19,446 nt of DNA. Origin: an uncultured Syntrophomonas sp. GTDB lineage: Bacteria; Bacillota; Syntrophomonadia; Syntrophomonadales; Syntrophomonadaceae. The translations under genes were made by a program, and so were the position numbers. The stretch is taken from the NCBI GenBank assembly GCA_964647245.1, contig CAZYJA010000019.1, positions 1 to 19,446 of the forward strand, in the 5' to 3' direction. The stretch's first letter is position 1. Every line of letters starts with the position of its first letter. Positions 1,126-17,896 of this stretch are shown piece by piece. The notes under the pieces were generated by a model that was not told the DNA's origin, did not search any database, and saw only the letters and a program-made list of their open reading frames with translations.

Positions 1126-1429
1126 TGACCTCACCTCCTGCCACCATTGTTATTGCAGGGAAAGGACACACATCCTCACATATGCCGCAGCCCTTACAGT
1201 ACATATAATCGAAGTCCAGGCGTTTCCCGTCCTTTACCGGTATCGCACTGTCCGGACAGAAGGGAACACAAAGCATACAATGTTTACAAGCTTCTTCGTG
1301 AAAAATGGGTGTGTTGGTCCGCCAAGTACCGGTATTAAAAGCCCGCGCGGTTCCCGGTTCGTAGATTTCCCCGCCGGGAGTCAAATCCTGCCAAGGGGTA
1401 TTTTCGTTAATATCCTTCGCATAAATCAT
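1118..1429 (-). CDS. porD: 2-oxoacid:ferredoxin oxidoreductase delta subunit (a 2x[4Fe-4S] ferredoxin).
   Basis: The 103-aa product carries two CxxCxxCxxxCP motifs (CKHCMLCVPFCP and CKGCGICEDVCP). Its start overlaps the end of the gamma subunit gene in an ATGA arrangement, and its stop lies 5 nt before the alpha subunit start. Confidence 0.9.
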   Translation of the reverse strand: MIYAKDINENTPWQDLTPGGEIYEPGTARAFNTGTWRTNTPIFHEEACKHCMLCVPFCPDSAIPVKDGKRLDFDYMYCKGCGICEDVCPFPAITMVAGGEVNE

Positions 1430-2028
1430 CCTAGCTGCACCTCCGCCATGGAATTTTTCAGCGCTGCCATGTTGCCCGCAATAACATGGGGCTTGGAAGC
1501 AAATTTGTGTTTATAGGAATCTTCGATATCCACTAAAAAACGCTCACTTTCCAAAACGCCGCTCACCTTAACTACCGCAGCCAGCATCGGAGTATTGGGT
1601 AAATTCTTGCCCAAACTCTCTTCCGAAATGCGGCGGGCATCGATAGTACAAACTTTTCCGCTCCATCCCTCCAGTTTTGAACGCATCTCCTGAGGAGAGC
1701 GAGGAGTGTTAATGATTATCGCGCCGCCCTCTTTCAGTCCGCCGGTAACGTCGACGCTGTCCAGCAAAGTTTCATCAACCACAACTACATAGTCCGGATA
1801 GTAAATATTGGAATGGACTGTACACCGTGTTTCACTAATGCGATTATAAGCCGTAATCGGGGCTCCCATACGTTCCGGTCCATACTCCGGGAATCCCTGC
1901 ACAAATTTCCCTTCTAAACCGGCCACATCCGCCAGCAGCAGGCAGGCCATCTTGGCTCCTTGTCCGCCCCGGCCGTGCCAACGAATTTCTACCATATCAT
2001 TGGTTGCCACTCTTATTCCTCCCATCAT
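1426..2028 (-). CDS. porG: 2-oxoacid:ferredoxin oxidoreductase gamma subunit. The true start may be the GTG at 2009.
   Basis: The 200-aa product contains the conserved gamma-subunit block MVEIRWHGRGGQGA. A GGGAGGAA ribosome-binding site is placed to serve either the ATG at 2028 or the GTG at 2009. Whether this is a pyruvate, ketoisovalerate or other 2-oxoacid enzyme cannot be decided from sequence alone. Confidence 0.88.
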   Translation of the reverse strand: MMGGIRVATNDMVEIRWHGRGGQGAKMACLLLADVAGLEGKFVQGFPEYGPERMGAPITAYNRISETRCTVHSNIYYPDYVVVVDETLLDSVDVTGGLKEGGAIIINTPRSPQEMRSKLEGWSGKVCTIDARRISEESLGKNLPNTPMLAAVVKVSGVLESERFLVDIEDSYKHKFASKPHVIAGNMAALKNSMAEVQLG

Positions 2029-3806: not shown

Positions 3807-3846
3807 TGGCAGATTCCAGGGTATCCCAGATTTTGTGTCAAACAGC

Positions 3847-3972
3847 AAAAGGGGTTTCAGTTTAAGTCTGAAACCCCTCGGCATTTCGGTTATGGCGAAT
3901 TTTTCTAATCTGATTACTTATTTTAATGAGTTTATCACTACATCTATTTGTCCAGCTAGACTAACATTAAAT
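3847..3972. repeat. Copy A of a ~126-bp repeat. It comprises a hairpin AAGGGGTTTCAG-N7-CTGAAACCCC followed by the last ~17 codons of a paralogous gene.
   Basis: By eye it is about 90% identical to 9487-9612, with roughly 10 mismatches and one 1-nt indel. The hairpin alone recurs at 17776-17809. Confidence 0.8.
3851..3877. terminator. Stem-loop GGGGTTTCAG/CTGAAACCCC with the U-tract on the minus side. It is a convergent terminator for the 2700..3806 gene and for minus-strand transcripts.
   Basis: The stem is a perfect 10 bp. On the minus strand it is followed by TTTTGCTGTTTG. The same hairpin ends the minus-strand genes at 9558 and 17897. Confidence 0.5.
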
Positions 3973-4547: not shown

Positions 4548-4700
4548 ACTTCATTAAATCCCTCCTAATTTCATCTTCTTGTAAAGTAATAAACTGAATG
4601 AAGGGTTCCCGCTCATAGCACCAGCCATTTGTATGGTAGTGTATTTGTCAACATTACCTACAAAGGATTGTCCGGCAATTCTTGCCGCCATTTTCTAAAG
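4548..4700 (-). pseudogene. Two collinear fragments of an SPFH/YdjI-like paralog, namely the 3' end plus downstream intergenic region and an internal ~75-bp piece. A deletion of ~315 bp separates them.
   Basis: The stretch 4548-4620 matches 10463-10530. The stretch 4625-4700 matches 10845-10918, which encodes ...MAARIAGQSFVGNV.KYTT.QMA. Confidence 0.55.
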
Positions 4701-4736
4701 TTTAATACAAAAAGAATCACCCGGTACCGCATCTGC

Positions 4737-4766
4737 ATGAAATGTCGTTTTTGCGTTATGAAATGT
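4737..4766 (+). promoter_or_regulatory. LytTR-type direct repeat ATGAAATGT-N12-ATGAAATGT that appears to be an orphan, because its -10 has degenerated.
   Basis: The 9-mers lie at 4737-4745 and 4758-4766 with the same 21-bp periodicity as the cassettes at 7289, 13251 and 15129. Upstream is the conserved AAGTTTAATACAAAAAGAATC element. At the position where the other copies read CTGGTATAAT, this copy reads CTGGTACCGC. Confidence 0.5.
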
Positions 4767-4829
4767 AATTTGTGGCATTTTACGGTAACGGCTCTGGTAC
4801 CGCCACTGATGGCCGGGGACAAAAGCGAG

Positions 4830-5927: not shown

Positions 5928-6863
5928 CTATTCTACTGCACTATCCCAAAGAAGTTCTGCAGCTACAAACAGGCCGATATATTCACCCATTTTTTCATCA
6001 GAAATAGTAGCATTTCCTGCATTGACTGCATCTATCATCTCTGCCATGGCCATGAAAGCATCAGTATAGGCAGCCATGGCGAAGGCAATATTCTTATGAG
6101 CCTCCAGGTAGTCGTTCGGTACCATAGGTGCTATTTCTATCATCGCATCAACAGATACAGTTGATGCCGCATATACATTTGCAAAGGCGTCAATCCACTC
6201 TTTCGAACCATCGTAATCTGCAAGCAGCTCATCAGTTGCGGCAATCATTTTTGTGTAATCAGTTACAAGGGGTCCCATAATCTTTTGGTACTGTTCATTT
6301 GTCAGCTTGTTATTGGCTGGAACAGATGTAGAAGGTGCAGCATAAGAAATGGAAGTATCTATACCAACTGTACTGCTGGCTGCATCCCAGGTAACGCCGA
6401 TATCGAAAAGCTGTGCAACATCACGAAGTTTGAAAAAATTGTTGCTGTTGATTGTGTAAGCAGTTAGATTTACTGCGCTTCCGTCCTTATATATTTTAGA
6501 CGTGCTAAGTGTAGCTGACTTTGCCAAGCCGTCACCCTTATTTAGCTCACCACCTACGACAGTATAAGCTCTACTGGAAACAAGGTTAATTGCATTTTTA
6601 GAACCATCCCAAGTAACCTCAAATTGTTTTCCGCTGCCTGATACAACCTTCGCAAGATCACGCAGCTTAAAATAGTTGCTATTTTCAATTGTATATGCAT
6701 CAAACGAAATTACATTTCCATTCACAATGACCTTTGAGGCAGTAGGTGTTGCAGCTTTAGTAGTTGCTGCAAATGCTGGGGTTACAAAAATACTAACCAT
6801 TAATGTTATCATTACAAAAAACGAAAATACTTTAGTGCTCATACTCTTGTTTACAAAACTCAT
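5928..6863 (-). CDS. Secreted 311-aa protein with two tandem copper-amine-oxidase N-terminal-like repeats and a helical C-terminal domain.
   Basis: It has a signal peptide ending AFA and an AAGGAGG ribosome-binding site. Two ~45-aa repeats are present: VIVNGNVISFDAYTIENSNYFKLRDLAKV... and IYKDGSAVNLTAYTINSNNFFKLRDVAQL.... Confidence 0.75.
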   Translation of the reverse strand: MSFVNKSMSTKVFSFFVMITLMVSIFVTPAFAATTKAATPTASKVIVNGNVISFDAYTIENSNYFKLRDLAKVVSGSGKQFEVTWDGSKNAINLVSSRAYTVVGGELNKGDGLAKSATLSTSKIYKDGSAVNLTAYTINSNNFFKLRDVAQLFDIGVTWDAASSTVGIDTSISYAAPSTSVPANNKLTNEQYQKIMGPLVTDYTKMIAATDELLADYDGSKEWIDAFANVYAASTVSVDAMIEIAPMVPNDYLEAHKNIAFAMAAYTDAFMAMAEMIDAVNAGNATISDEKMGEYIGLFVAAELLWDSAVE

Positions 6864-6967: not shown

Positions 6968-7207
6968 TTATTTATCCATCTCCTTCCCATGGCTTCGGTT
7001 TAGGGGAAACCTGCACACGCTGTGGGTCCGATGCTCACTGATATTTTTCCTGAAATCCGAATGCTTGCAGTACCAGCACTCCCGCATGGGGGCCAGGCTG
7101 TCGCTTGCTGCACATTCCCAGTGAGAGCAGGTATCGTCTTCCCTCACCACTGGATAGGTATCGTCGGTCTTATCCCTGTCCTTTGGCCGCATATTTCCTT
7201 TATCCAA
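6968..7207 (-). CDS. Small hydrophilic Cys-rich protein of 79 aa (TTG start), carrying C-x4-C...C-x2-C motifs and an additional Cys-x-x-x-His motif. It is a paralog of the 12921..13160 ORF.
   Basis: A GGGAAGGAGTGG ribosome-binding site lies 9 nt before the TTG. The ORF is conserved in the second copy, with 65 of 79 residues identical. Its reality is uncertain because the opposite strand also carries an open 74-aa ORF in both copies. Confidence 0.35.
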   Translation of the reverse strand: MDKGNMRPKDRDKTDDTYPVVREDDTCSHWECAASDSLAPMRECWYCKHSDFRKNISEHRTHSVCRFPLNRSHGKEMDK

Positions 7208-7288
7208 CTGCAGCCACTCCTTCCCTGCAAATCCATATACCGTTAATTCTAATATTCAAAAGTTTAATACAAATAGAATCGCCTGGTA

Positions 7289-7366
7289 ATAAATCTGCAC
7301 GAAATGTCGCTTGTGGGTTATGAAATGTAATTTCCAGTAATTTTTTGTAATTCCTGTGGTATAATG
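7289..7366 (+). promoter_or_regulatory. LytTR-box promoter cassette made of ACGAAATGT-N12-ATGAAATGT followed by the extended -10 TGGTATAAT.
   Basis: The 9-mers lie at 7289-7297 and 7310-7318, 21 bp apart. TGGTATAAT lies at 7358-7366. A GAGGTGA ribosome-binding site and the ATG at 7402 follow. Confidence 0.65.
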
Positions 7367-7401: not shown

Positions 7402-7924
7402 ATGAAAATCGCTATTTGCGATGACGACAAGGGGGACTTTTACATAAAATTATTTTTTTGACTTCATCCTCAATTTGCGGTAGATTCTTATTCTGTGGGT
7501 GCATTTAACTATTATTAAAACCCATTCAAAAAGACCCACTCTTTTCCGTTTTAAAAAAAGCCTGCAAGCATATTTTTTAAGCGGACTGAAGCAATATATC
7601 GTCGTCAAAACGCCCAGCAGCCTTTCTAAGTTCTTCCTCAACGAGCTGATCTAGGTTGAAGTAAGGGGCAGAACCGTGTGCTTTTATCAAAAAGGCGGGA
7701 GCACGTTAGAAAGTACCAGTACGATTTCTCAAGTTGAAGCTGTTTTATTAATCGATAAACGTTTCATTCCGGATCGCTCCGATATCGAAAACCTTGATTA
7801 TATAAAGAGCCTTTCTCATGATGGCCTTACAACCACCAGCAATCGATTTATACCTATATCAAGCAAGGTTTTCAAAAAAGTAAAGCAGTTGTATATCAAT
7901 CATTCCTTTCACGCGGAAGCTTAA
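7402..7924 (+). pseudogene. Disrupted LytTR response regulator.
   Basis: The first 30 nt (MKIAICDDDK) are identical to the intact regulator gene at 13354. Unrelated sequence at 7432-7625 then replaces the receiver domain and hits a stop after 19 codons. From ~7625 the LytTR-domain half resumes in homology with 13785-14082 (FLNELI*VEV...QKGGSTLES...LLIDKRFIP...FIPISSKVFKKVKQLYINH). This half carries an in-frame TAG where the intact copy has TAT. Confidence 0.75.
7468..7496 (+). promoter_or_regulatory. Sigma-A-like promoter TTGACT-17-TAGATT inside the segment that replaced the receiver domain. It could drive the downstream kinase gene.
   Basis: The hexamers and 17-nt spacing were read directly from the sequence. 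No other support exists. Confidence 0.35.
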
Positions 7925-7938
7925 TGGAGGTTAAAATC

Positions 7939-9207
7939 ATGCTGGATTATATTAGGTCTCTGCTTGCCTTTATTTTTGCAATCAGCGTAATGTATATGCT
8001 CTTGGATTGTGAGATCAAGCACCAGAAGAACCGCTATCTATTGGGTTTGTACGTTACTATCCTACTAATCTGTAATGTGCTTGTTTTATATAACTTTGGG
8101 TATATATTCTTCATGAAACTATATCCCCTTCTGGTTCACTTTCCGGTATTCTTGGCCTTTGTTTTTGTATCCCGGTTCAAACCCATCAAGGTCTTTTTTG
8201 TTCTTTGTACACTTATCGCTTTCTCCACGTCGTTTTCTGTGGTTGGACTGATTATTTCATATTTTTTTGGCTCCAGCAGGGAAGTCGTAAACATTGTTTC
8301 CTATATGCTGTTTATACCCACCGGGTTGATCATTTACCAGTATATCCGTCCGTCTTTTCTGTATATGATGCGCAACACCGATAAAGGCTGGTTAGGTTTT
8401 TCCATCGTACCCCTTTCATACTCAGTGCTTATTTATTCTATTGGAATGTATAATTTGGATACAGTGAACATTGGACCTTTATTAAAGAACGCTGTGCTGC
8501 TATTTATTTTGGCTTTTTCAGCTTATTATATGATTATCCGTTTTTTTAAACAGACCCAAGAACAGCTCACCCTGCAAACTGAACAGGATTTGTTGATAAA
8601 GCAAGCTACCGCAGCCCAGCACCAGTTGGCAGCATTGCAAGAATCACAAGAAATGACCATTATTTATCGCCACGATATGCGACACCATCTAAATCTAATC
8701 AGTGCCTATCTTGCAGAAAACAACCCGGCAGCAGCCCAAAACTATATTAACGAAGTTGAAAAAACCATTGCCAGTGCTGTGGTTGAAAAATATTGCAGCA
8801 ACTATACCGTCAATTTAATACTATATTTCTATATTGCGAAGGCCAAGGATGCACTGATTGCAGTTGAAACCCAAATCGATCTCCGGGAGCAAAACCCGGT
8901 ATCCGATATGGACCTTTGCGTTATCTTTGCAAATGCCCTGGAAAATGCGATGAATGCCTGCCAGCGTATTCCTAACGCCAATGATAGATGCTTAAAAATC
9001 TTCTGCCAAACCAAAAGTGATAAGCTCTTCATCCAAATTGCCAATAGCTACACCGGCACGGTCACGTTTGATGACGACATGCCGGTAAGCACGGAAGAAA
9101 ATCACGGCTTGGGCACGAAAAGCATTGCCGCGGTAGCACATAAATACGACGGTTTATTTTCTTTCACGGCCGAAGATGGGATCTTCAAGACCAATATAAT
9201 CCTGTAA
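7939..9207 (+). CDS. HPK10 (AgrC/ComD-like) sensor histidine kinase with a 6-7 TM N-terminal domain and a C-terminal GHKL ATPase.
   Basis: Multiple hydrophobic helices occupy the first ~200 aa. The H-box is YRHDMRHHLN, the N-box is VIFANALENAMNA, and the G-box is GLGTKSI. A GGAGG ribosome-binding site lies 8 nt before the ATG at 7939. The ORF track instead begins at the in-frame ATG at 7924, which overlaps the pseudogene stop. Confidence 0.85.
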   Translation: MLDYIRSLLAFIFAISVMYMLLDCEIKHQKNRYLLGLYVTILLICNVLVLYNFGYIFFMKLYPLLVHFPVFLAFVFVSRFKPIKVFFVLCTLIAFSTSFSVVGLIISYFFGSSREVVNIVSYMLFIPTGLIIYQYIRPSFLYMMRNTDKGWLGFSIVPLSYSVLIYSIGMYNLDTVNIGPLLKNAVLLFILAFSAYYMIIRFFKQTQEQLTLQTEQDLLIKQATAAQHQLAALQESQEMTIIYRHDMRHHLNLISAYLAENNPAAAQNYINEVEKTIASAVVEKYCSNYTVNLILYFYIAKAKDALIAVETQIDLREQNPVSDMDLCVIFANALENAMNACQRIPNANDRCLKIFCQTKSDKLFIQIANSYTGTVTFDDDMPVSTEENHGLGTKSIAAVAHKYDGLFSFTAEDGIFKTNIIL

Positions 9208-9271: not shown

Positions 9272-9399
9272 CGTCTACTTAGATGTATCATTTTTCGTTA
9301 TGAAATGAACAAATTATTGTTCCTGACTGTAAACCATGCTGATTGAGACTCCTGTGTATCCAAGAAGACCACGCTTGAAAGCAGCATGAAATTACTCAC

Positions 9400-9480
9400 C
9401 CAGATAGAAAGCGGCATACCCGGGTTGAGATATTTATATGGGTTGATATTTCTGATATCCCAGGCAGTTGCAAACATATA
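9400..9480 (-). pseudogene. Fragment resembling the C-terminal end of the 14204..14980 secreted protein.
   Basis: The minus-strand translation FATAWDIRNINPYKYLNPG matches FETACDIRDINPSIYLNAKG in that protein. Nothing upstream of it is homologous. Confidence 0.4.
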
Positions 9481-9486
9481 ATAATA

Positions 9487-9612
9487 AAAGGGGTTTCAGT
9501 TCTAAGTCTGAAACCCCTCGGTATTTCGGTTATAGCGGATTTTTCTAGTCTTATTGCTTATTTTAATGAGTTTATCACTACATCTATTTGGGCAGCTAGA
9601 TCAACATTAAAT
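9487..9612. repeat. Copy B of the ~126-bp repeat. In this copy it forms the genuine 3' end and terminator of the 9558..10397 gene.
   Basis: It matches 3847-3972. The hairpin at 9489-9516 is followed on the minus strand by a T-rich tract. Confidence 0.8.
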
Positions 9613-10524: not shown

Positions 10525-11595
10525 CTACACGGTTTGAGTTCCACAATCCGGACAGAATTTACCCGCTACCATTTTGCGGCAGGTGGGACAGAATTGTGGG
10601 GCCCCTGCCGCTTGCTCTGCTCCGACAGCCTGCATAGGTTGGCCACACTCGGGACAAAACTTCATAGGGGTAGTACTGGTATTTCCGCAACCGGTACAGG
10701 CAAAGTTAGCGACTGCTGGCCGCAGTACCGGTGCTCCGGCTCCGCTCATGGCGCCAGCCATCTGCTGTGCCATCTGGGCTCCTATAGCCATTTGCGCTCC
10801 CATGGTTGCTAGGTTATTCCCGCCCCCAGGGGAGTCAAAGCTGTCCGCCATTTGAACGGTAGTGTATTTACCAACATTACCTACAAAGGATTGTCCGGCA
10901 ATTCTTGCCGCCATTTCCTGTACTTCAGCCGGGTAGTTGATGCTATGGATATTTACATCAACCGCACCCAATCCAAAATCCAACAGCTCTTTATCCAATT
11001 CATCATTAATTGCTTTACCCAATTTACGGCTATTCTGCTGCAGGCTAACGAGAGCGTTTATACCAATGCTCTGCTGTCCACCTAAAATAGCTTCTGCAAC
11101 CACCGGGTTCAACTCGCCCATAATACGCTCGGCAATGTCCTCCAGGGAATAGGAATCCTTTATACCTGCAACCTTCTCGATGAACTTTTGATAATCACGA
11201 AATTCCACAATCAGGTTTCCGTTACAACCTACGGGGATTCCCGTCGGTACCTCCGGGGTTGGAATCATAATGCGCTGACGGGTCCCCCATGACAAAAGAA
11301 GTTCCTTGCTGTTCACAAAATAGACCTCCGCCCGCATTCCGGTATCACCTCTGAGGGCAAACACCCCTTTGAGCGTTGATAGAAATGGAACAATCTCGGA
11401 GGCAATATCATAACTGCCCGCTTTTTCAAACACACCCTCGACTTGACCGTTGGCATAGAAAATTGCCTTTTGTCCCATACGAATAATCAGCTTCGCATTT
11501 TTTTTAATTTCTTTGGCAGGCCACTTGAAGAATAACATATCATCCCTGAATTCTTCCCATTCAACCGTATCCTTGCCTTGCCCAAACCATGCCAT
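10525..11595 (-). CDS. SPFH/band-7-like protein of 356 aa with a Gly/Ala/Met-rich linker and C-terminal tandem zinc ribbons. It resembles Bacillus YdjI.
   Basis: The N-terminal ~230 aa are consistent with an SPFH fold. The C-terminus carries CTGCGN...CPECG and CPTC...CPDCG. An AGGGGG ribosome-binding site is present. Confidence 0.7.
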   Translation of the reverse strand: MAWFGQGKDTVEWEEFRDDMLFFKWPAKEIKKNAKLIIRMGQKAIFYANGQVEGVFEKAGSYDIASEIVPFLSTLKGVFALRGDTGMRAEVYFVNSKELLLSWGTRQRIMIPTPEVPTGIPVGCNGNLIVEFRDYQKFIEKVAGIKDSYSLEDIAERIMGELNPVVAEAILGGQQSIGINALVSLQQNSRKLGKAINDELDKELLDFGLGAVDVNIHSINYPAEVQEMAARIAGQSFVGNVGKYTTVQMADSFDSPGGGNNLATMGAQMAIGAQMAQQMAGAMSGAGAPVLRPAVANFACTGCGNTSTTPMKFCPECGQPMQAVGAEQAAGAPQFCPTCRKMVAGKFCPDCGTQTV

Positions 11596-11609: not shown

Positions 11610-12695
11610 CTATATAATGGATACCAAGGTAACAAATATTATAATCACCGCCATAATGAAGGTCACGATTTTCGGAATGCTGTAGGGCCGCTGCCCGTCG
11701 ATCACTCCTGTTTCGCCGTTGACGAAGTATTGGTAGGTTTTACCTTTATAGCCATAAGCCGAACCCCATACCGGCAGCAACAGATGCTTATAAGTTACAT
11801 TGGAGTGTATGGTGTCCAGACTGCTCACCCGGGCGGTATTATATCTCCTGCGTATATCTTGATCGGCCAGAGATCGAAGCTCACCCTCCATGATCTGTTT
11901 TGCCGATTCAAAGGCTTGGTCCGCCTTAATTGTATAGAGCTCCGCATGAAAGCCGGACAAATACGATGGGGCATAAGGCCTAGTATTCTCAACCGTATTA
12001 AAGGGCAGTATCCCATTAATATCTTGTTTCTTTTCTGATGCGCACACCTGCAGATCGTCAAAGCTAGAACTCACCACACCTGACACCGGTGTCCAGTCGG
12101 TTACCGTTCTATTTTTTCCGTCCTGGTCCTTTTCCGTGCGATAATTGCCGCCCTGCCCCCGGTAATTTGCAATGGCGGTGGCATCAAACGTCCAGTAGGG
12201 TATATACATTCCCTTTAGCGAACCCTCGACGCACTTCTTCTTAAAGTCATTGGGCGCAAACCATCTTGATTTTACCCACTCTTTAAATTCTTGTCCGGCT
12301 TCAACTTTATCAATCTTGAACGGCACAATCCCCTCCGGTGGAATTCCCCCCTTTTGTTTTACAGTGGCCACCTGAGTTGAGGAACACATTGGGCAGGTGG
12401 TTGCTATCTGTTGCTCATCAAAGGTAATTTCGCACCCGCAGTTTTGGCAATGCACCACTGCCACACCCGCAAACGCTACCGATTCTTTCTCCCGCTCGGA
12501 GTACTGGCTAAAGTCATATTCTGAAACCGTTGCCGCCAGATTCTCTATCAGGCTTTCCGCTTTACAAGATGAACACCGGAATTTCTCTTTACCGATGTCA
12601 TACTTTATAACCCCGCCGCAATTGGCGCAGACAAAAGTTTGGGTATCAACCGCGACCTTTACCGGAACCTCACTAATTTCGGTCTGTTTATCCAT
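11610..12695 (-). CDS. Zinc-ribbon protein with a C-terminal TM anchor, resembling Bacillus YdjG. It lies upstream of and co-oriented with the SPFH gene.
   Basis: Two CxxC...CxxC ribbons are present (CANCGG...CSSC and CQNCGC...CPMC), along with a C-terminal hydrophobic helix IVTFIMAVIIIFVTLVSII. The likely start is the second ATG at 12695 (MDKQTEI), which has a GAGGAG ribosome-binding site. The ORF track starts at 12707. Confidence 0.65.
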   Translation of the reverse strand: MDKQTEISEVPVKVAVDTQTFVCANCGGVIKYDIGKEKFRCSSCKAESLIENLAATVSEYDFSQYSEREKESVAFAGVAVVHCQNCGCEITFDEQQIATTCPMCSSTQVATVKQKGGIPPEGIVPFKIDKVEAGQEFKEWVKSRWFAPNDFKKKCVEGSLKGMYIPYWTFDATAIANYRGQGGNYRTEKDQDGKNRTVTDWTPVSGVVSSSFDDLQVCASEKKQDINGILPFNTVENTRPYAPSYLSGFHAELYTIKADQAFESAKQIMEGELRSLADQDIRRRYNTARVSSLDTIHSNVTYKHLLLPVWGSAYGYKGKTYQYFVNGETGVIDGQRPYSIPKIVTFIMAVIIIFVTLVSII

Positions 12696-12839
12696 GTTAC
12701 TCCTCATTTCATGTGCATAATATTCCTGGAAATATGCGGGTAGAACCCATTTAAACTACCATAATTTGCATCTCGAAGAGGCTTATTCCATACCCGCAGT
12801 AATTATAACCCAAAAAACTCCTGCAAAATGCACCTTTGT

Positions 12840-12869
12840 ATGAGATGTAGTTTGTGCGTCCTGAAATGA
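12840..12869 (+). promoter_or_regulatory. Degenerate LytTR-like direct repeat ATGAGATGT-N12-CTGAAATGA with 21-bp periodicity.
   Basis: It is oriented rightward, toward the 12921-13200 small-ORF region, and would be antisense to the minus-strand 79-aa ORF. No convincing -10 follows it. Confidence 0.35.
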
Positions 12870-12920: not shown

Positions 12921-13160
12921 TTATTTATCCTTCTCCTTCCCCCCGATTCGGTTTAACGGACACCTGCATACGCTGTGGGTCCGATGCTGGCTAATCTCTT
13001 TGCGAAAATCTGCATATTTGCAGTACCAGCACTCCCGCATGGGGACCAGGCTGTCACCTGCTGCACATGCCCAATGAGAGCAGGTATCGTCCTCTCTCAC
13101 TATTCTATAGGTATCGTCGGTCCCATCCCGGTCCTTTGGCCGCATATTTCCTTTATCCAA
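12921..13160 (-). CDS. Small hydrophilic Cys-rich protein of 79 aa (TTG start), paralogous to 6968..7207.
   Basis: It has the same GGGAAGGAGTGGCTGCAGTTG start context as the first copy. The Cys positions are conserved (C27, C32, C45, C48, C65) and there is an extra Cys at position 67. Confidence 0.35.
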   Translation of the reverse strand: MDKGNMRPKDRDGTDDTYRIVREDDTCSHWACAAGDSLVPMRECWYCKYADFRKEISQHRTHSVCRCPLNRIGGKEKDK

Positions 13161-13250
13161 CTGCAGCCACTCCTTCCCTTCAAGTCCATATTCCGTTAAC
13201 TCTAATAGTTAAATTTTATAACAAATGAAACCGCCCGGTGATATATCTGC

Positions 13251-13318
13251 ATGAAATGTCGTCCTGGGGTTATGAAATGTAAATTTCCATTATTTATTCG
13301 TAATTGCTCTGGTATAAT
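13251..13318 (+). promoter_or_regulatory. LytTR-box promoter cassette in front of the intact response regulator. It consists of ATGAAATGT-N12-ATGAAATGT followed by TGGTATAAT.
   Basis: The 9-mers lie at 13251-13259 and 13272-13280. TGGTATAAT lies at 13310-13318. A GAGGTGA ribosome-binding site and the ATG at 13354 follow. The arrangement suggests autoregulation. Confidence 0.7.
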
Positions 13319-13353: not shown

Positions 13354-14082
13354 ATGAAAATCGCTATTTGCGATGACGACAAGCCGGAACTGTTACGCAT
13401 CAGTCGGCTGGCACATGAATATTTGAGCTCCGGCTTTACCGAAAGCCTACCGGAAATCCACAGCTTTGAAAGCAGTCTGAAGTTGCTCGAACAGCTGGAA
13501 AGCGGCATACATTTTGATCTTTTTCTTTTGGATGTCATAATGCCTAACCTAAACGGCATCCAGCTGGCCAACGAGATAAGAAAAATGGATGAGGTAGCCA
13601 AAATTATATTTTTGACTTCAAGCTCGGAATTTGCGGTAGAGTCTTATTCAGTGGGCGCTTTTAATTATCTTATAAAGCCTATTCAAAGACCCCAACTCTT
13701 CTCTGTTTTAGAAAAAGCCGGCAACGATATTATAAGTGACCTGAAACAATTTATCGTGGTTAAAACCCCCAGCACCTTGTCCAAGGTATTCCTCCACGAG
13801 CTGATCTATGTTGAGGTGATTGGCAGAACCGTATGTTTTCATCAAAAAGGCGGGGCTAGGGTGGAAAGCATCATTACGATTTCTCAAGTTAAAGCTGCTT
13901 TATTAATAGATAAACGTTTTATCCAGCCTCATCGCTCCTATATCGTCAACTTAGACTATGTCCAAAAACTATCCCCGGATGGCTTTACAACGAAAGACGG
14001 CCAGTTTATTCCCATATCAAGAAATGTTTTCAAAGAAGTAAAACAGGCCTATATCAATCATTGCTTTCGGTCGGAAGGTTAA
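13354..14082 (+). CDS. LytTR-family response regulator (AgrA/ComE-like) of 242 aa.
   Basis: An N-terminal receiver domain is present (MKIAICDDD...DVIMP...IIFLTS). A C-terminal LytTR DNA-binding domain is present (VKT.S....F..ELIYVE......VCFHQKGG...I...RS.IVN). Confidence 0.9.
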   Translation: MKIAICDDDKPELLRISRLAHEYLSSGFTESLPEIHSFESSLKLLEQLESGIHFDLFLLDVIMPNLNGIQLANEIRKMDEVAKIIFLTSSSEFAVESYSVGAFNYLIKPIQRPQLFSVLEKAGNDIISDLKQFIVVKTPSTLSKVFLHELIYVEVIGRTVCFHQKGGARVESIITISQVKAALLIDKRFIQPHRSYIVNLDYVQKLSPDGFTTKDGQFIPISRNVFKEVKQAYINHCFRSEG

Positions 14083-14153
14083 TAGGATGGCAAAAAAAAT
14101 ATCCTGTATAAATCTGGTGCAAAGGGTGCTCCTGAAGGTAACGCTAAATAAGT

Positions 14154-14188
14154 AAAAAAGCCGATTGCAACAACCATCGGCTTTTTTA
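14154..14188. terminator. Bidirectional intrinsic terminator between the response regulator and the convergent 14204..14980 gene.
   Basis: An A6 tract precedes the stem GCCGATTG...CCATCGGC, and a T6 tract follows it. Confidence 0.6.
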
Positions 14189-14203
14189 CTTAACGGGGGT
14201 AAA

Positions 14204-14980
14204 TTACCCTTTAGCGTTGAGATATATACTGGGATTGATATCTCTGATATCGCAGGCGGTTTCAAACAAGCTTATATTTACTTGATTTCTAAAATAGGTT
14301 GACATTTGATGATTTAAGTCTTGCTTCAGTCTATCCAAATCAGGATCTGCATAGCCATCCACCAATTCCCACCAGCGTGCAATTAACGATACAACCTTAT
14401 CCTGCTCCGTATCGGTTAAATCCAACCAGCTTTGAGTCCTAAATCTTAAAACATAACTGATTTCTTCGTTGGTGATCGGTATCGTTTCGCCTATGCCTTC
14501 GCCAATTTGATTATTTATATAAGCAGGAGAGAAAAGATATACATCACCATTGTCAACATTATAGTCAACCTTATAACCAATAGCCTCGGAAATAAATCTT
14601 AACGGAACCAAGGTCCGGCCATTAATAATTACGGGAGGAGAGTCCAGCTCATACTCGATCCCAACTCGGTCATTAAGCATGGCATCAAATTTGGAATAGT
14701 TGGCTGTCTTATTTCCGATTTGCATTTCAATAATAAGCCCATTGCTGGCAGGGTCGTAAATTTCAACCTGTTGTTGATCAGCTATCCATTCAACCCGGCA
14801 GCCAACCATTTCAGCAATCGCCCTAACTGGAACCATGGTTCTTTGGTTAATAATCTGTGGTGCAACTTCGGTCTTTACTTCCTCCAAGTCAACCAAAATC
14901 TGGGCGGCCAAGCTTGGGCTGGCGAAACAAAAAGTCAGAACCCATACCAGAGTTACCATAAGTATTGCTTTCTTGCTCAT
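14204..14980 (-). CDS. Secreted 258-aa protein with two copper-amine-oxidase N-terminal-like domains.
   Basis: It has a signal peptide ending LAAQ. The motifs NQRTMVPVRAIAEMVGCRVEW and NGRTLVPLRFISEAIGYKVDY are present. A GGAGGAGG ribosome-binding site is present. Confidence 0.75.
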   Translation of the reverse strand: MSKKAILMVTLVWVLTFCFASPSLAAQILVDLEEVKTEVAPQIINQRTMVPVRAIAEMVGCRVEWIADQQQVEIYDPASNGLIIEMQIGNKTANYSKFDAMLNDRVGIEYELDSPPVIINGRTLVPLRFISEAIGYKVDYNVDNGDVYLFSPAYINNQIGEGIGETIPITNEEISYVLRFRTQSWLDLTDTEQDKVVSLIARWWELVDGYADPDLDRLKQDLNHQMSTYFRNQVNISLFETACDIRDINPSIYLNAKG

Positions 14981-15128
14981 ATTCCTACCTCCTCCAATTA
15001 TTTTTTATTACTTCCCAGGACCAACCTGGTCAAGTGGATGCTTTTATTGATCGGTATGGTTATTTGCATACTCGCTAATTCTATTCGTCTAAGTTTAGTA
15101 CAAAAAGAATCCTGTGGTTACTCATTTG

Positions 15129-15190
15129 CATGAAATGTCGTTTTTACGTCATGAAGTGTATTATAGGTGCTTTTAAGGCTCTGCTATAAT
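15129..15190 (+). promoter_or_regulatory. LytTR-box promoter cassette in front of the protease gene. It consists of ATGAAATGT-N12-ATGAAGTGT followed by TATAAT.
   Basis: The 9-mers lie at 15129-15137 and 15150-15158. TATAAT lies at 15185-15190. Upstream is the conserved element AAGTTTAGTACAAAAAGAATC. An AAAGGAGG ribosome-binding site precedes the ATG at 15279. Confidence 0.65.
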
Positions 15191-15278
15191 TTATATTGCA
15201 TACAGGCTAATCTTCGGATGTTTCCCCAGAAGTACGGTATTAATTAGTTTGCAAAATGAAAGTTAAAAGGAGGAAAAA

Positions 15279-17666
15279 ATGAAAAAAAGTATTTCGATTA
15301 TGGTTTTAGTGTTATCCCTTTTTTTCGCCGGTAGCTGCGCGTATGCTGCTGAGGGTGGCGTATATCTGGAAGAAGCGCAAGCGCTTAAGCAGATGGGTTT
15401 ATTTAGGGGCTCCGACCAGGGCTTTGAGCTGGAAAGAGCACCCTCCCGAGTTGAGGCGGCAGTTATGCTGATCAGAATTCTCGGCCAGGAAGAAATTGCG
15501 CTGTCAGCTCATTATTCCCACCCATTCAATGATGTACCCGCCTGGGCCAATGATTATATCGGTTATATGTATGAAAGTAATTTATCCAAGGGTATTTCCG
15601 CCACCGAATTTGGCTCCGCCCAGCTAACCTCTGCTAATCAATATGCTACCTATATTCTGCGAGCATTAGGTTACAGCGATCAGGAAGGCGATTTCATATG
15701 GAGCGAAGCCCTAAATAAATCCCTGTCCATAGGCTTTCTTACCGAAACTGATCTAGCTAATCTAAATCAAGCCAATAAATTATTTGTGAGAGATGATATG
15801 GTGCACCTATCCTATACCGCTCTGGCCAATAAATTAAAAGGCCAGACGATTACCCTACAGGATAAGCTGGCTCAGGAAGGGGTGTTTGATAAAGCCGCCT
15901 ATACCATCATGATGTATTTAAATGGATCTGATTTAGAGAGTCTAAATGGTATGGCAACCTCCGATTTGAATGAAATTCTGGGCGCGGATTTCTCCCATCA
16001 GGATATAAATATGATTATTCAAACTGGCGGCACTGCCCAGTGGCAGAATAATGTAATTCCAGCCCACCAGCTCGCTCGCTGGGCAGTAACTGACAATGGC
16101 TTGGAGCTATTGCAGGAATTACCTCTGGCCAGCATTGGTGATAGTAAAACCTTAACTGATTTTATCGACTTTGCCATTAATAATTACCCCGCTCAAAAGT
16201 ATGGGCTGATTTTCTGGAACCATGGAGGAGGATCAGTATCTGGCTATGGAGTAGATGAACTATTTAATTATGATGGCTTAAGCTTAAAGGAACTAGATAT
16301 TGCGTTTGAAAACTCGCGGCTAAATACTAACCAGCTGGAATTTTTGGGATTCGATGCCTGCTTAATGGGGAATTTGGAAACCGCCAATATCGCCAAAGAT
16401 TACGCCAGCTACCTGATAGCCTCGGAGGAACTTGAGCCGGGCTATGGTTGGGATTATGATTATTTTCTTACCCGGCTGGGCCGTAATCCTGGCATGGATG
16501 GTAAAGAACTAGGGGCAAACATTGTGGATGGCTTCATCTCTTTTTATCAAAACAATGGCATGGCCGATGAAGCAACTACCCTTTCGGTTATCGATTTAAA
16601 AAAGGTACCGGCAGTAGTAAATGCTCTGGAAAGCTTTATTGATGTGGTTGATATCTCGGCAGCAAATTTCGCCACCTTATCTAAACCAAGGTCGAAGACC
16701 AAGGAATTTGGTATGCCCTCGGCCCATGGTGGCTGTACCGATATGGTTGACATGGTGGACTTAGCGAAACAATTCCAAAGTGTTATTCCGGCACCGTCAG
16801 CTAATTTGGTTAAGGCTATAAACGAGGCCGTCATATACAACCGCATGGGAGATTATGTTGACAAAGCCGGCGGGCTTTCTATGTACTTCCCCTACTCAGC
16901 CAAGGATGAAGTGGGGGATCGTATTCCAGTTTATCAAACAACCGGATTTTCTCCTAAATATATTGATTATGTAACCGAATATGCTAATCTGCTAACCGGC
17001 ACTAGCTTAATATCTTTTGATTTGTCTTCTGATATGCCGGAACAATCGGACGAGAGCTTTAGCATATCATTGTCTCAGGAAGAGCTGGATAACATTGGTC
17101 AAATCAATTTTACTGCCTGGGTTAAGGATGATGAGAACTTCTATACCCAGATTTTACAGGACAGCTATGTGGAAATCGATGAATATGGCACGATAGTAAC
17201 CGAGTTTAACGGTCAGATCACCACCATTAATGGAGAATGGGCTTGTCTTTATGAACTTGATCGCGGTGAAGATTATGTCCGCTATGGGGTGCCCGCCTAT
17301 TTGAATGACGCAGAAGTAAATATCGTACTGCTCTATGATAATGAAAATCCAAACGGCCTGATCGTCGGTGCTATGCCGGTCTATGATGAAATAACCGGAA
17401 TGGCTCCCAAGAGCATGATTGATTTCCAGACCGGGGACCGCATTACGATGCTTTATTACACCAGTAAATTCGTGGATGTGAATGATGACACTGAAGCCAC
17501 TGAGGAAGACTTTTATTGGTATGAAGGAAACACCTTTACCCTAGGTGAAGAACTAACCTTGGAAACCTGGGAGGTTGAGGATGGAACCTATCTATACGGG
17601 TTTACAGTTGTAGATTTGCAGGGCAATGAATATTATACCGATTTTATTGAGGTAGCTTACGAATAA
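15279..17666 (+). CDS. Secreted clostripain-family (C11) cysteine peptidase of 795 aa with up to three N-terminal SLH (S-layer homology) repeats.
   Basis: A signal peptide is present. Three ~55-aa SLH-like repeats occupy residues ~25-190. The catalytic His lies in LIFWNHGGGSVSGYG and the catalytic Cys lies in LGFDACLMGNLE. A long beta-rich C-terminal region follows. Confidence 0.8.
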   Translation: MKKSISIMVLVLSLFFAGSCAYAAEGGVYLEEAQALKQMGLFRGSDQGFELERAPSRVEAAVMLIRILGQEEIALSAHYSHPFNDVPAWANDYIGYMYESNLSKGISATEFGSAQLTSANQYATYILRALGYSDQEGDFIWSEALNKSLSIGFLTETDLANLNQANKLFVRDDMVHLSYTALANKLKGQTITLQDKLAQEGVFDKAAYTIMMYLNGSDLESLNGMATSDLNEILGADFSHQDINMIIQTGGTAQWQNNVIPAHQLARWAVTDNGLELLQELPLASIGDSKTLTDFIDFAINNYPAQKYGLIFWNHGGGSVSGYGVDELFNYDGLSLKELDIAFENSRLNTNQLEFLGFDACLMGNLETANIAKDYASYLIASEELEPGYGWDYDYFLTRLGRNPGMDGKELGANIVDGFISFYQNNGMADEATTLSVIDLKKVPAVVNALESFIDVVDISAANFATLSKPRSKTKEFGMPSAHGGCTDMVDMVDLAKQFQSVIPAPSANLVKAINEAVIYNRMGDYVDKAGGLSMYFPYSAKDEVGDRIPVYQTTGFSPKYIDYVTEYANLLTGTSLISFDLSSDMPEQSDESFSISLSQEELDNIGQINFTAWVKDDENFYTQILQDSYVEIDEYGTIVTEFNGQITTINGEWACLYELDRGEDYVRYGVPAYLNDAEVNIVLLYDNENPNGLIVGAMPVYDEITGMAPKSMIDFQTGDRITMLYYTSKFVDVNDDTEATEEDFYWYEGNTFTLGEELTLETWEVEDGTYLYGFTVVDLQGNEYYTDFIEVAYE

Positions 17667-17775
17667 CACAGGTTCAACCAAGTTGTTCTCAGCACTTATT
17701 TAGTATCTATTGTCTTTCCCGGCTATACCTACCTATCGCGGTTACCGGCCTATACCATTTACACAAAAATACTCC

Positions 17776-17809
17776 AAGGGGTTTCAGCTCTAAGTCTGAA
17801 ACCCCTTGG
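17776..17809. terminator. The AAGGGGTTTCAG-N8-CTGAAACCCCTTGG hairpin (third copy), terminating the 17897.. minus-strand gene.
   Basis: On the minus strand it is followed by a U5 tract. A second hairpin at 17873-17915 (AATGCC...GGCATTTTTT) serves the plus-strand protease gene. Confidence 0.55.
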
Positions 17810-17896
17810 TCGTGGAGAAGCAGAAACGATCGTTAAATAACGATAAGGCAGATTAGATACTGGTATACAGAGTAATGCCCTTTATGAAATCCGGCG

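Follow-up and report, generated by a model that had tools for sequence, protein, structure and literature searches.

The 19,446-nucleotide stretch of DNA analysed here (contig CAZYJA010000019.1 of assembly GCA_964647245.1, from an uncultured Syntrophomonas sp.), referred to below as the window, encodes two related small proteins with four invariant cysteines (Cys4), which likely represent an unrecognised third component of AgrC/AgrA-type (LytTR) two-component systems across the Clostridia. Both small open reading frames (ORFs) are real genes, coding on the minus strand and under purifying selection, and belong to a family which, judged by database and literature searches, is undescribed and widespread in Clostridia. 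Members share a cysteine signature, are commonly encoded next to LytTR regulators and AgrC-like kinases, follow direct repeat boxes, with few exceptions lack export signals and are in some cases fused to cytoplasmic enzymes. The reading favoured, with slightly better than even confidence, is that the protein resides in the cytoplasm, is induced by the regulator, binds a metal and serves the LytTR pathway as an accessory regulator or co-sensor; metal binding, its partner and the direction of its effect are predictions.

The small genes lie in two duplicate modules, each divergent from a copy of a LytTR regulator gene. The relevant features are:

6968..7207, minus strand: small Cys4 protein gene copy 1, 79 codons from a TTG start (74 from the alternative ATG at codon 6)
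12921..13160, minus strand: small Cys4 protein gene copy 2, 79 codons from a TTG start, with 65/79 residues identical to copy 1
7217..7222, minus strand: ribosome-binding site AAGGAG of copy 1, 9 nt before the TTG and kept in relatives
13170..13175, minus strand: ribosome-binding site AAGGAG of copy 2, 9 nt before the TTG, as read off the sequence
7022..7246 and 12975..13199, plus strand: overlapping 74-codon ORFs, open in both modules

An earlier note on the window, made from its letters alone, had described the two minus-strand ORFs with their TTG starts, strong ribosome-binding sites and 65 shared residues, all of which proved accurate, as did the presence of an open plus-strand ORF of 74 amino acids in both copies. 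The two copies differ at 35/240 nucleotides and both incorporate the pattern C27-x4-C32 ... C44-x2-C47 ... C65. They form part of a duplicated block of 295 nt (86 % identity), in which the similarity starts at the small-ORF stop codon. Both copies are also included, unnamed, among the gene calls of the source assembly.

The coding strand, which the note had left undecided, is settled in favour of the minus strand. As the note had proposed, the ratio of nonsynonymous to synonymous substitution rates (dN/dS) between the two copies was calculated for each frame, giving 0.25 for the minus-strand and 0.65 for the plus-strand ORF, with 14 and 23 amino acid differences, respectively. In a comparison of seven sequences, comprising the two window copies and five fetched homologue loci, differences at codon positions 1, 2 and 3 of the minus-strand ORF numbered 201, 172 and 404, respectively, the third position being approximately twice as changeable, and pairwise dN/dS values against the five relatives ranged from 0.11 to 0.43. 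The sense frame is open in 7/7 sequences, free of the stops which the note had named as counter-evidence, while the antisense frame is interrupted by two stops in locus L004. The plus-strand ORF was thus rejected as a gene, given its dN/dS of 0.65, its 23 amino acid differences, the stops in L004 and the fact that its fastest-changing position is its first codon position. As fifteen close homologues (61–82 % identity) and a wider family exist, the small ORFs are also beyond what chance would produce.

The exact start codon in the family is not certain, with the TTG and the codon-6 ATG both candidates; the conserved TTG cannot serve in locus L007, where it is out of frame and the only usable start is the ATG matching codon 6. 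An 8-bp hairpin (UGGCUGCA/UGCGGCCA) brackets the TTG and overlaps the codon-6 ATG in both copies (7175–7216 and 13128–13169, minus strand); compensatory changes were looked for in relatives, including L007 around position 5986, and none were found. This hairpin, the 89 % conservation between copies of the untranslated region just upstream and the divergent transcription from the regulator operon are the features expected if the conserved 240–295 nt element were mainly a regulatory RNA, with the ORF incidental or secondary. Such an element would resemble RNAIII/hld of the staphylococcal agr locus, which is likewise divergent from an agr-like operon under LytTR boxes and contains a small ORF. 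Selection here, however, acts on the protein (dN/dS 0.1–0.4), substitutions are codon-like and amino acid conservation extends to relatives at 30 % identity. Folding z-scores are inconsistent between the copies (+1.49 and −2.01), suggesting no conserved stable RNA structure, no Rfam match was obtained and the hairpin is without compensatory changes. A mainly RNA function is thus highly improbable.

Members of the Cys4 family were identified by several searches. Beyond the fifteen close homologues obtained in the protein search, a profile search of 1.84 billion representative proteins recovered 62 clusters (50 % identity representatives), nearly all with proteins of 64–95 amino acids; the multi-stretch matches P0050 and P0071 represent repeat translations and were set aside. 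A word-indexed search found at least 284 proteins, all labelled 'hypothetical', with no Pfam domain among the 120 matches listed. When one genome was scanned for each species, 75 loci were recovered, in Syntrophomonas, Desulfosporosinus and Peptococcaceae as well as Oscillospiraceae, Lachnospiraceae/Butyrivibrio, Anaerovoracaceae and Eubacteriaceae, with the closest being metagenome-assembled genomes of Syntrophomonas (70–72 % identity).

Six residues (C27, C44, W45, C47, F52 and C65) are invariant in 116 aligned sequences and three (V21, E43 and K48) are nearly so. The resulting family signature is C-x16-(E)CW[YF]C[KR]x[SA]DF-x~12-[SG][VI]C. Both window copies also carry its stricter form, C-x16/17-[EG]CW[YF]C[KR][YFW][SA]DF[RH]-x11-13-[SG][VI]C, in a hydrophilic protein of approximately 65–95 amino acids. 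The cysteine pattern given in the note is present in both copies, but its C-x4-C part is specific to the close clade, outside of which C32 is not kept; the histidines are similarly restricted. No significant family was obtained for the small proteins in sequence-profile searches of Pfam, NCBIfam and PDB, where matches to DUF2387 (7/116 members) and Zn_ribbon_3 (3/116) were weak and not significant, and no description of the Cys4 family turned up in the literature, whether searched by concept or by motif string. A structural-neighbour search with two AlphaFold2 models returned no fold match. The suggestion that these are novel, conserved Cys-rich small proteins is thus supported, with homologues across the Clostridia. 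Their description as zinc ribbons is not supported. Classical zinc ribbons (Pfam Zn_ribbon) are likewise small and Cys-rich with one CxxC, but the Cys4 protein lacks the second CxxC knuckle, its conserved ligand set being C27/C44/C47/C65, scores far below the Pfam cut-offs (Zn_ribbon_3, E=0.075) and has no fold match, so that a classical zinc ribbon was discarded.

The linkage of the family to LytTR systems was determined across the 75 loci using crude ORF calls, which were searched with hidden Markov models made from the regulator and kinase clusters, over a range of 3.5 kb. A LytTR-type regulator and/or an AgrC-like kinase is encoded within this distance in 57/75 loci, with both present in 39. 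Regulator and kinase clusters are by far the commonest neighbours (46 and 44 loci, respectively), with the next commonest clusters found in 16 loci. The same linkage is evident from precomputed Pfam labels on independently fetched contigs (L001, L003, L004, L081, L083 and L084), which include a complete Agathobaculum genome. At least six gene orders occur among the linked loci, including:

regulator-kinase-small: 12 loci
regulator-small-kinase: 9 loci
regulator-small: 9 loci
divergent, as in the window: 8 loci
small-regulator-kinase: 6 loci

The recurrence of the small ORF beside LytTR regulators in related genomes, which the note had proposed to look for, is thus observed.

Within the window, the regulatory genes are distributed over the two modules as follows:

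7403..7924, plus strand: LytTR response-regulator pseudogene (copy 1), with approximately 200 nt lost (receiver residues ~8–75), frameshifts and a stop
7924..9207, plus strand: AgrC-like histidine kinase, with a polytopic N-terminal part of ~205 amino acids followed by a HATPase_c_5 (GHKL) domain; the sole kinase in the window
13354..14082, plus strand: intact response regulator (copy 2) with Response_reg and LytTR domains; the sole intact regulator

Both small genes are indeed divergent from a LytTR regulator copy, as the note had claimed, and copy 2 of the regulator is intact, but copy 1 is a pseudogene. Module 1 has an intact kinase and a dead regulator, while module 2 has an intact regulator and is without a kinase, so that the modules complement each other. 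As the only kinase is found in module 1 and the only intact regulator in module 2, the working system is split across the two. Both small genes have remained intact and under purifying selection.

Five matches to ACATTTCAT-N12-ACATTTCAT occur in the window, against 0.04 expected by chance. These LytTR boxes and the adjoining promoter elements are:

7299..7328, minus strand: LytTR-type box (ACATTTCAT-N12-ACATTTCGT) in the divergent promoter region of module 1
7264..7269, minus strand: TATTAA, putative -10 on the small-ORF side of module 1, 29 nt from the box, with TAyTAA kept in relatives
7360..7365, plus strand: TATAAT at a distance of 31 nt from the module 1 box, on its regulator/kinase side, the putative -10 of the pseudo-regulator and kinase genes
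13251..13280, minus strand: LytTR-type box (ACATTTCAT-N12-ACATTTCAT) in the divergent promoter region of module 2
13215..13220, minus strand: TATAAA at a distance of 30 nt from the module 2 box, the putative -10 toward the small ORF
13313..13318, plus strand: TATAAT at a distance of 32 nt from the module 2 box, the putative -10 of regulator copy 2
4737..4766, minus strand: LytTR box in the first copy of a ~110-nt promoter cassette
15130..15159, minus strand: LytTR box in a cassette between 14204..14980 (minus strand) and the clostripain-like gene 15279..17666 (plus strand)
12840..12869, minus strand: degenerate fifth LytTR box, with TATAAT 32 nt downstream (12807..12802, minus strand)

The ~110-nt cassette occurs four times (4690–4799, 7252–7361, 13204–13313 and 15083–15192), each copy incorporating one repeat pair and -10-like elements on both sides, with the rightward -10 of the copy at 4690 being degenerate. 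The copies precede the lipoprotein-like, copper-amine-oxidase-N-domain and clostripain-like genes and the small ORFs. A single repeat pair between two -10-like elements may thus serve as a bidirectional LytTR-dependent promoter, presumably acting toward the small gene as well. The degenerate box at 12840, which the note had read as pointing into the plus-strand ORF, is on the minus strand 32 nt upstream of its TATAAT and therefore serves 11610..12707 (minus strand), the gene downstream of small ORF 2. The box-linked genes other than the small ORFs and the regulatory genes encode secreted or envelope proteins, namely EMYY-type lipoprotein-like proteins, proteins having a copper-amine-oxidase N-terminal domain, a clostripain-like peptidase and SPFH and zinc-ribbon proteins.

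Unrelated lineages have their own direct repeats, which differ in sequence, are spaced 20–21 nt apart and lie 70–120 nt upstream of the small gene, with a -10-like element following approximately 30 nt on (e.g. L029, L043, L046 and L051). Direct repeats with a spacing of 20–22 nt precede the small gene in 26 % of loci, compared with frequencies of 4 % in control windows and 1 % in shuffles. In locus L009, the small gene retains a box even though no regulator gene adjoins it. The small gene thus appears to be switched on by the LytTR system, and with boxes preceding both window copies and 57/75 loci linked, the association proposed in the note is well founded.

The position of the small gene is that of a pheromone gene, and the note had raised an unusual signal precursor as one possible function. 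According to this explanation, the protein or a fragment thereof would be exported and sensed by the AgrC-like kinase, representing the missing pheromone of an agr-like system without AgrB and AgrD. As in the ComC/ComD/ComE, PlnA/B/C/D and AgrD/AgrC/AgrA systems, a small gene lies beside an HPK10-type polytopic kinase and a LytTR regulator, and direct repeats of 9–10 bp, approximately 21 nt apart, precede both the small gene and the regulator operon in an autoregulatory loop; this is the classic position of comC, plnA and agrD. Furthermore, the small gene is immediately upstream of the kinase in nine loci, and neither the window nor its close relatives yielded another peptide gene, a pattern scan of both for double-glycine-leader ORFs being empty. 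In locus L046, a double-glycine leader precedes the Cys4 domain and two NHLP-type ATP-binding cassette (ABC) exporter genes adjoin it.

The properties of the protein itself point away from such a role. Both window proteins are strongly hydrophilic (grand average of hydropathy −1.2 to −1.35), and neither they nor nearly all of their relatives have a leader, signal peptide or hydrophobic segment. The absence of AgrB and ABC exporters reported in the note is confirmed for the large window ORFs, none of which matched either when scanned against Pfam, and the small proteins gave no AgrD-type match in NCBIfam. The window thus differs from the pheromone systems in lacking a double-glycine leader, AgrB and an exporter. 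The Cys4 protein further differs from pheromones in its four invariant cysteines and in being fused, in some relatives, to cytoplasmic GGDEF enzymes. In these fusions the Cys4 domain is N-terminal to PAS-GGDEF or GGDEF in proteins without transmembrane segments, where its placement and setting are those of a sensory or regulatory module in the cytoplasm.

Conservation also distinguishes the small protein from pheromones, which usually diversify along with their receptors. Between the window and loci L011, L012 and L018, the small core is 64–68 % identical, compared with 25–39 % for the regulator, 30–35 % for the cytoplasmic part of the kinase and 18–20 % for its membrane part. Among 19 Lachnospiraceae-type loci, the corresponding medians are 79 %, 71 %, 60 % and 41 %, with the small core above the kinase membrane part in 171/171 pairs. 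Across the whole family, conservation of the small protein (28 %) is comparable to that of the regulator (30 %) and exceeds that of the kinase (19 %). The small core is thus more conserved than the membrane sensor in every comparison, the opposite of the pheromone pattern, in which the small protein evolves fastest rather than slowest.

Several relatives carry a leader behind the Cys4 domain. This domain is fused ahead of a double-glycine leader and a Cys-rich core in L027, L036–39, P0064, P0077, P0137 and P0148, and ahead of a Nif11-like leader in P0053. Judged from this domain order, it would remain intracellular after cleavage, which for L027 and L036–39 argues against a signal. With no leader or hydrophobic segment, the highest conservation in the module and fusions to GGDEF enzymes lacking transmembrane segments, a signal precursor is quite improbable.

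An alternative which keeps the protein in the cell is that of a downstream effector. In this case the small protein would be the main output of the LytTR system, in the way that ComX is for ComE and RNAIII for AgrA, and would act away from its own kinase and regulator. Possible targets include a sigma factor or RNA polymerase, on which it would work as an adaptor or anti-sigma-like Cys4 protein. The location of the small gene right behind LytTR boxes in many lineages, the existence of orphan copies without a nearby two-component system and the status of the protein as the best-conserved part of the module, as expected if its partner is itself conserved, all fit this explanation. A gene for an extracytoplasmic function (ECF)-like sigma factor is furthermore found 13 nt before the Cys4 gene in four loci:

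L028, 5413–5952: ECF-like sigma factor gene
L032, 5413–5952: ECF-like sigma factor gene
L031, 5295–5951: ECF-like sigma factor gene
L035, 5379–5951: ECF-like sigma factor gene

In these four loci the sigma/anti-sigma-like arrangement is followed by LytTR regulator and kinase genes. Sigma adjacency is nevertheless restricted to approximately 4/75 loci, and the HxxxCxxC anti-sigma motif is absent, the residue four before C44 being P, V or I. The N-terminal fusion to GGDEF likewise suggests a sensory or regulatory module over an RNA-polymerase binder. An effector role is thus considered fairly unlikely.

The preferred accessory regulator or co-sensor would operate as follows. Both ORFs would be translated to give a small, soluble cytoplasmic protein, in which C27, C44, C47 and C65 would hold a metal, either zinc or an Fe-S cluster. 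The phosphorylated LytTR regulator (13354..14082), fed by the sole kinase (7924..9207), would activate the bidirectional promoter, where a -10-like element lies approximately 30 nt to either side of the repeat pair, driving the small protein gene in one direction and the regulator and kinase genes in the other. The small protein would then act as an intracellular accessory regulator or co-sensor of its own pathway, providing feedback or a redox or metal input on the kinase core or the regulator.

A number of observations weigh against this proposal. The two AlphaFold2 models are of low confidence (predicted local distance difference test scores of 59 and 63). The leftward putative -10 (TAyTAA) is without the usual final T and was not called by the promoter scan. 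No LytTR system is nearby in 18/75 loci, several of which are cut off on the relevant side. Paired full-length NHLP-type ABC exporters (TIGR03797, above cut-off) adjoin the Cys4 gene in approximately 10/75 loci, which also encode double-glycine-leader, zinc-ribbon-like peptides. The leader preceding the Cys4 domain in L046, the only such case among the 75 loci, would mean export, while the ECF-like sigma factor genes directly before the Cys4 gene in four loci would fit an anti-sigma-like role better than one exerted on the two-component system. The NHLP, L046 and sigma cases keep the effector and signal explanations alive for parts of the family.

The double-glycine peptides of these loci have Cys-rich, zinc-ribbon-like cores (L027, 5417–5886; L028, L031, L032 and L035, between 3800 and 5100; L046, 2886–3083), as exemplified by MSEEKKAVELTEMELESVDGG followed by AGTYNGHRITTG...CGAC..., and are possibly exported zinc-binding peptides.

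Small proteins which modulate kinases include MgrB, which is induced by its response regulator and acts back on PhoQ/PhoP, and kinase inhibitors of the Sda/KipI type. MgrB is a membrane peptide with periplasmic cysteines, which matter for its function. By analogy, the Cys4 gene may similarly be a response-regulator target whose product modulates the same pathway, but the Cys4 protein is soluble and unrelated in sequence, and its interaction with the kinase is a proposal made here. Small Cys-based metal or redox sensors include the ZAS anti-sigma factors (RsrA) and the WhiB-like Fe-S proteins. The Cys4 protein is comparably small and soluble, has four conserved Cys/His-type ligands including one CxxC and is tied to transcriptional signalling, but differs in its spacing (C-x16-CxxC-x17-C), the lack of HxxxCxxC, the absence of sequence or profile similarity and the presence of an adjacent sigma gene in few loci; the two window copies have neither HxxxCxxC nor an adjacent sigma gene.

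More broadly, and only tentatively, the Cys4 family could constitute a previously unrecognised class of sensor modules working inside the cell with a Cys4-bound Zn or Fe-S centre. These could supply AgrC-type kinases, which have only a membrane sensor, with a second, cytoplasmic input (redox state, metal or oxygen), act in cis on GGDEF cyclases and, ahead of double-glycine leaders, be freed on export and so report export flux. If true, many 'orphan' agr-like systems of anaerobic Clostridia would be three-component systems. Gut, rumen and syntrophic Clostridia commonly possess AgrC/AgrA-like LytTR systems in which AgrBD is missing, and few of the inputs to these systems have been identified. 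A small protein which is conserved with such AgrBD-less systems, encoded behind their boxes and above the sensor in conservation is thus a concrete candidate for the missing component, with cultured relatives in Butyrivibrio, Faecalicatena and Agathobaculum. It also represents a new protein family or domain for annotation, with members short enough for gene callers to miss.

Additional features were noted in the window. A 73-nt fragment at 4624–4696, which is 93 % identical to 10847–10919 inside the SPFH/double-zinc-ribbon gene (10525..11595), is left over from rearrangement between the modules. A 45-nt stretch at 9375–9419, downstream of the kinase, is 80 % identical to 13466–13510, a part of regulator copy 2 which is deleted in copy 1; with no protein-level match, it may be a relic or due to chance. 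A GC-rich, terminator-like hairpin (GGGGTTTCAG...CTGAAACCCC) occurs three times at the ends of repeated modules (3840–3882, 9480–9522 and 17768–17810). A weak Thr_leader match at 14097–14190 on the plus strand (27.8 bits against a gathering score of 55, E=0.13) is most likely due to chance. A T-box leader match at 2203–2430 on the minus strand scores 91.2 bits (E=4e-19), slightly short of the Rfam gathering threshold of 93; it precedes both a 76-codon ORF and a gene of the pyruvate/2-oxoacid:ferredoxin oxidoreductase gamma type (1426..2028).
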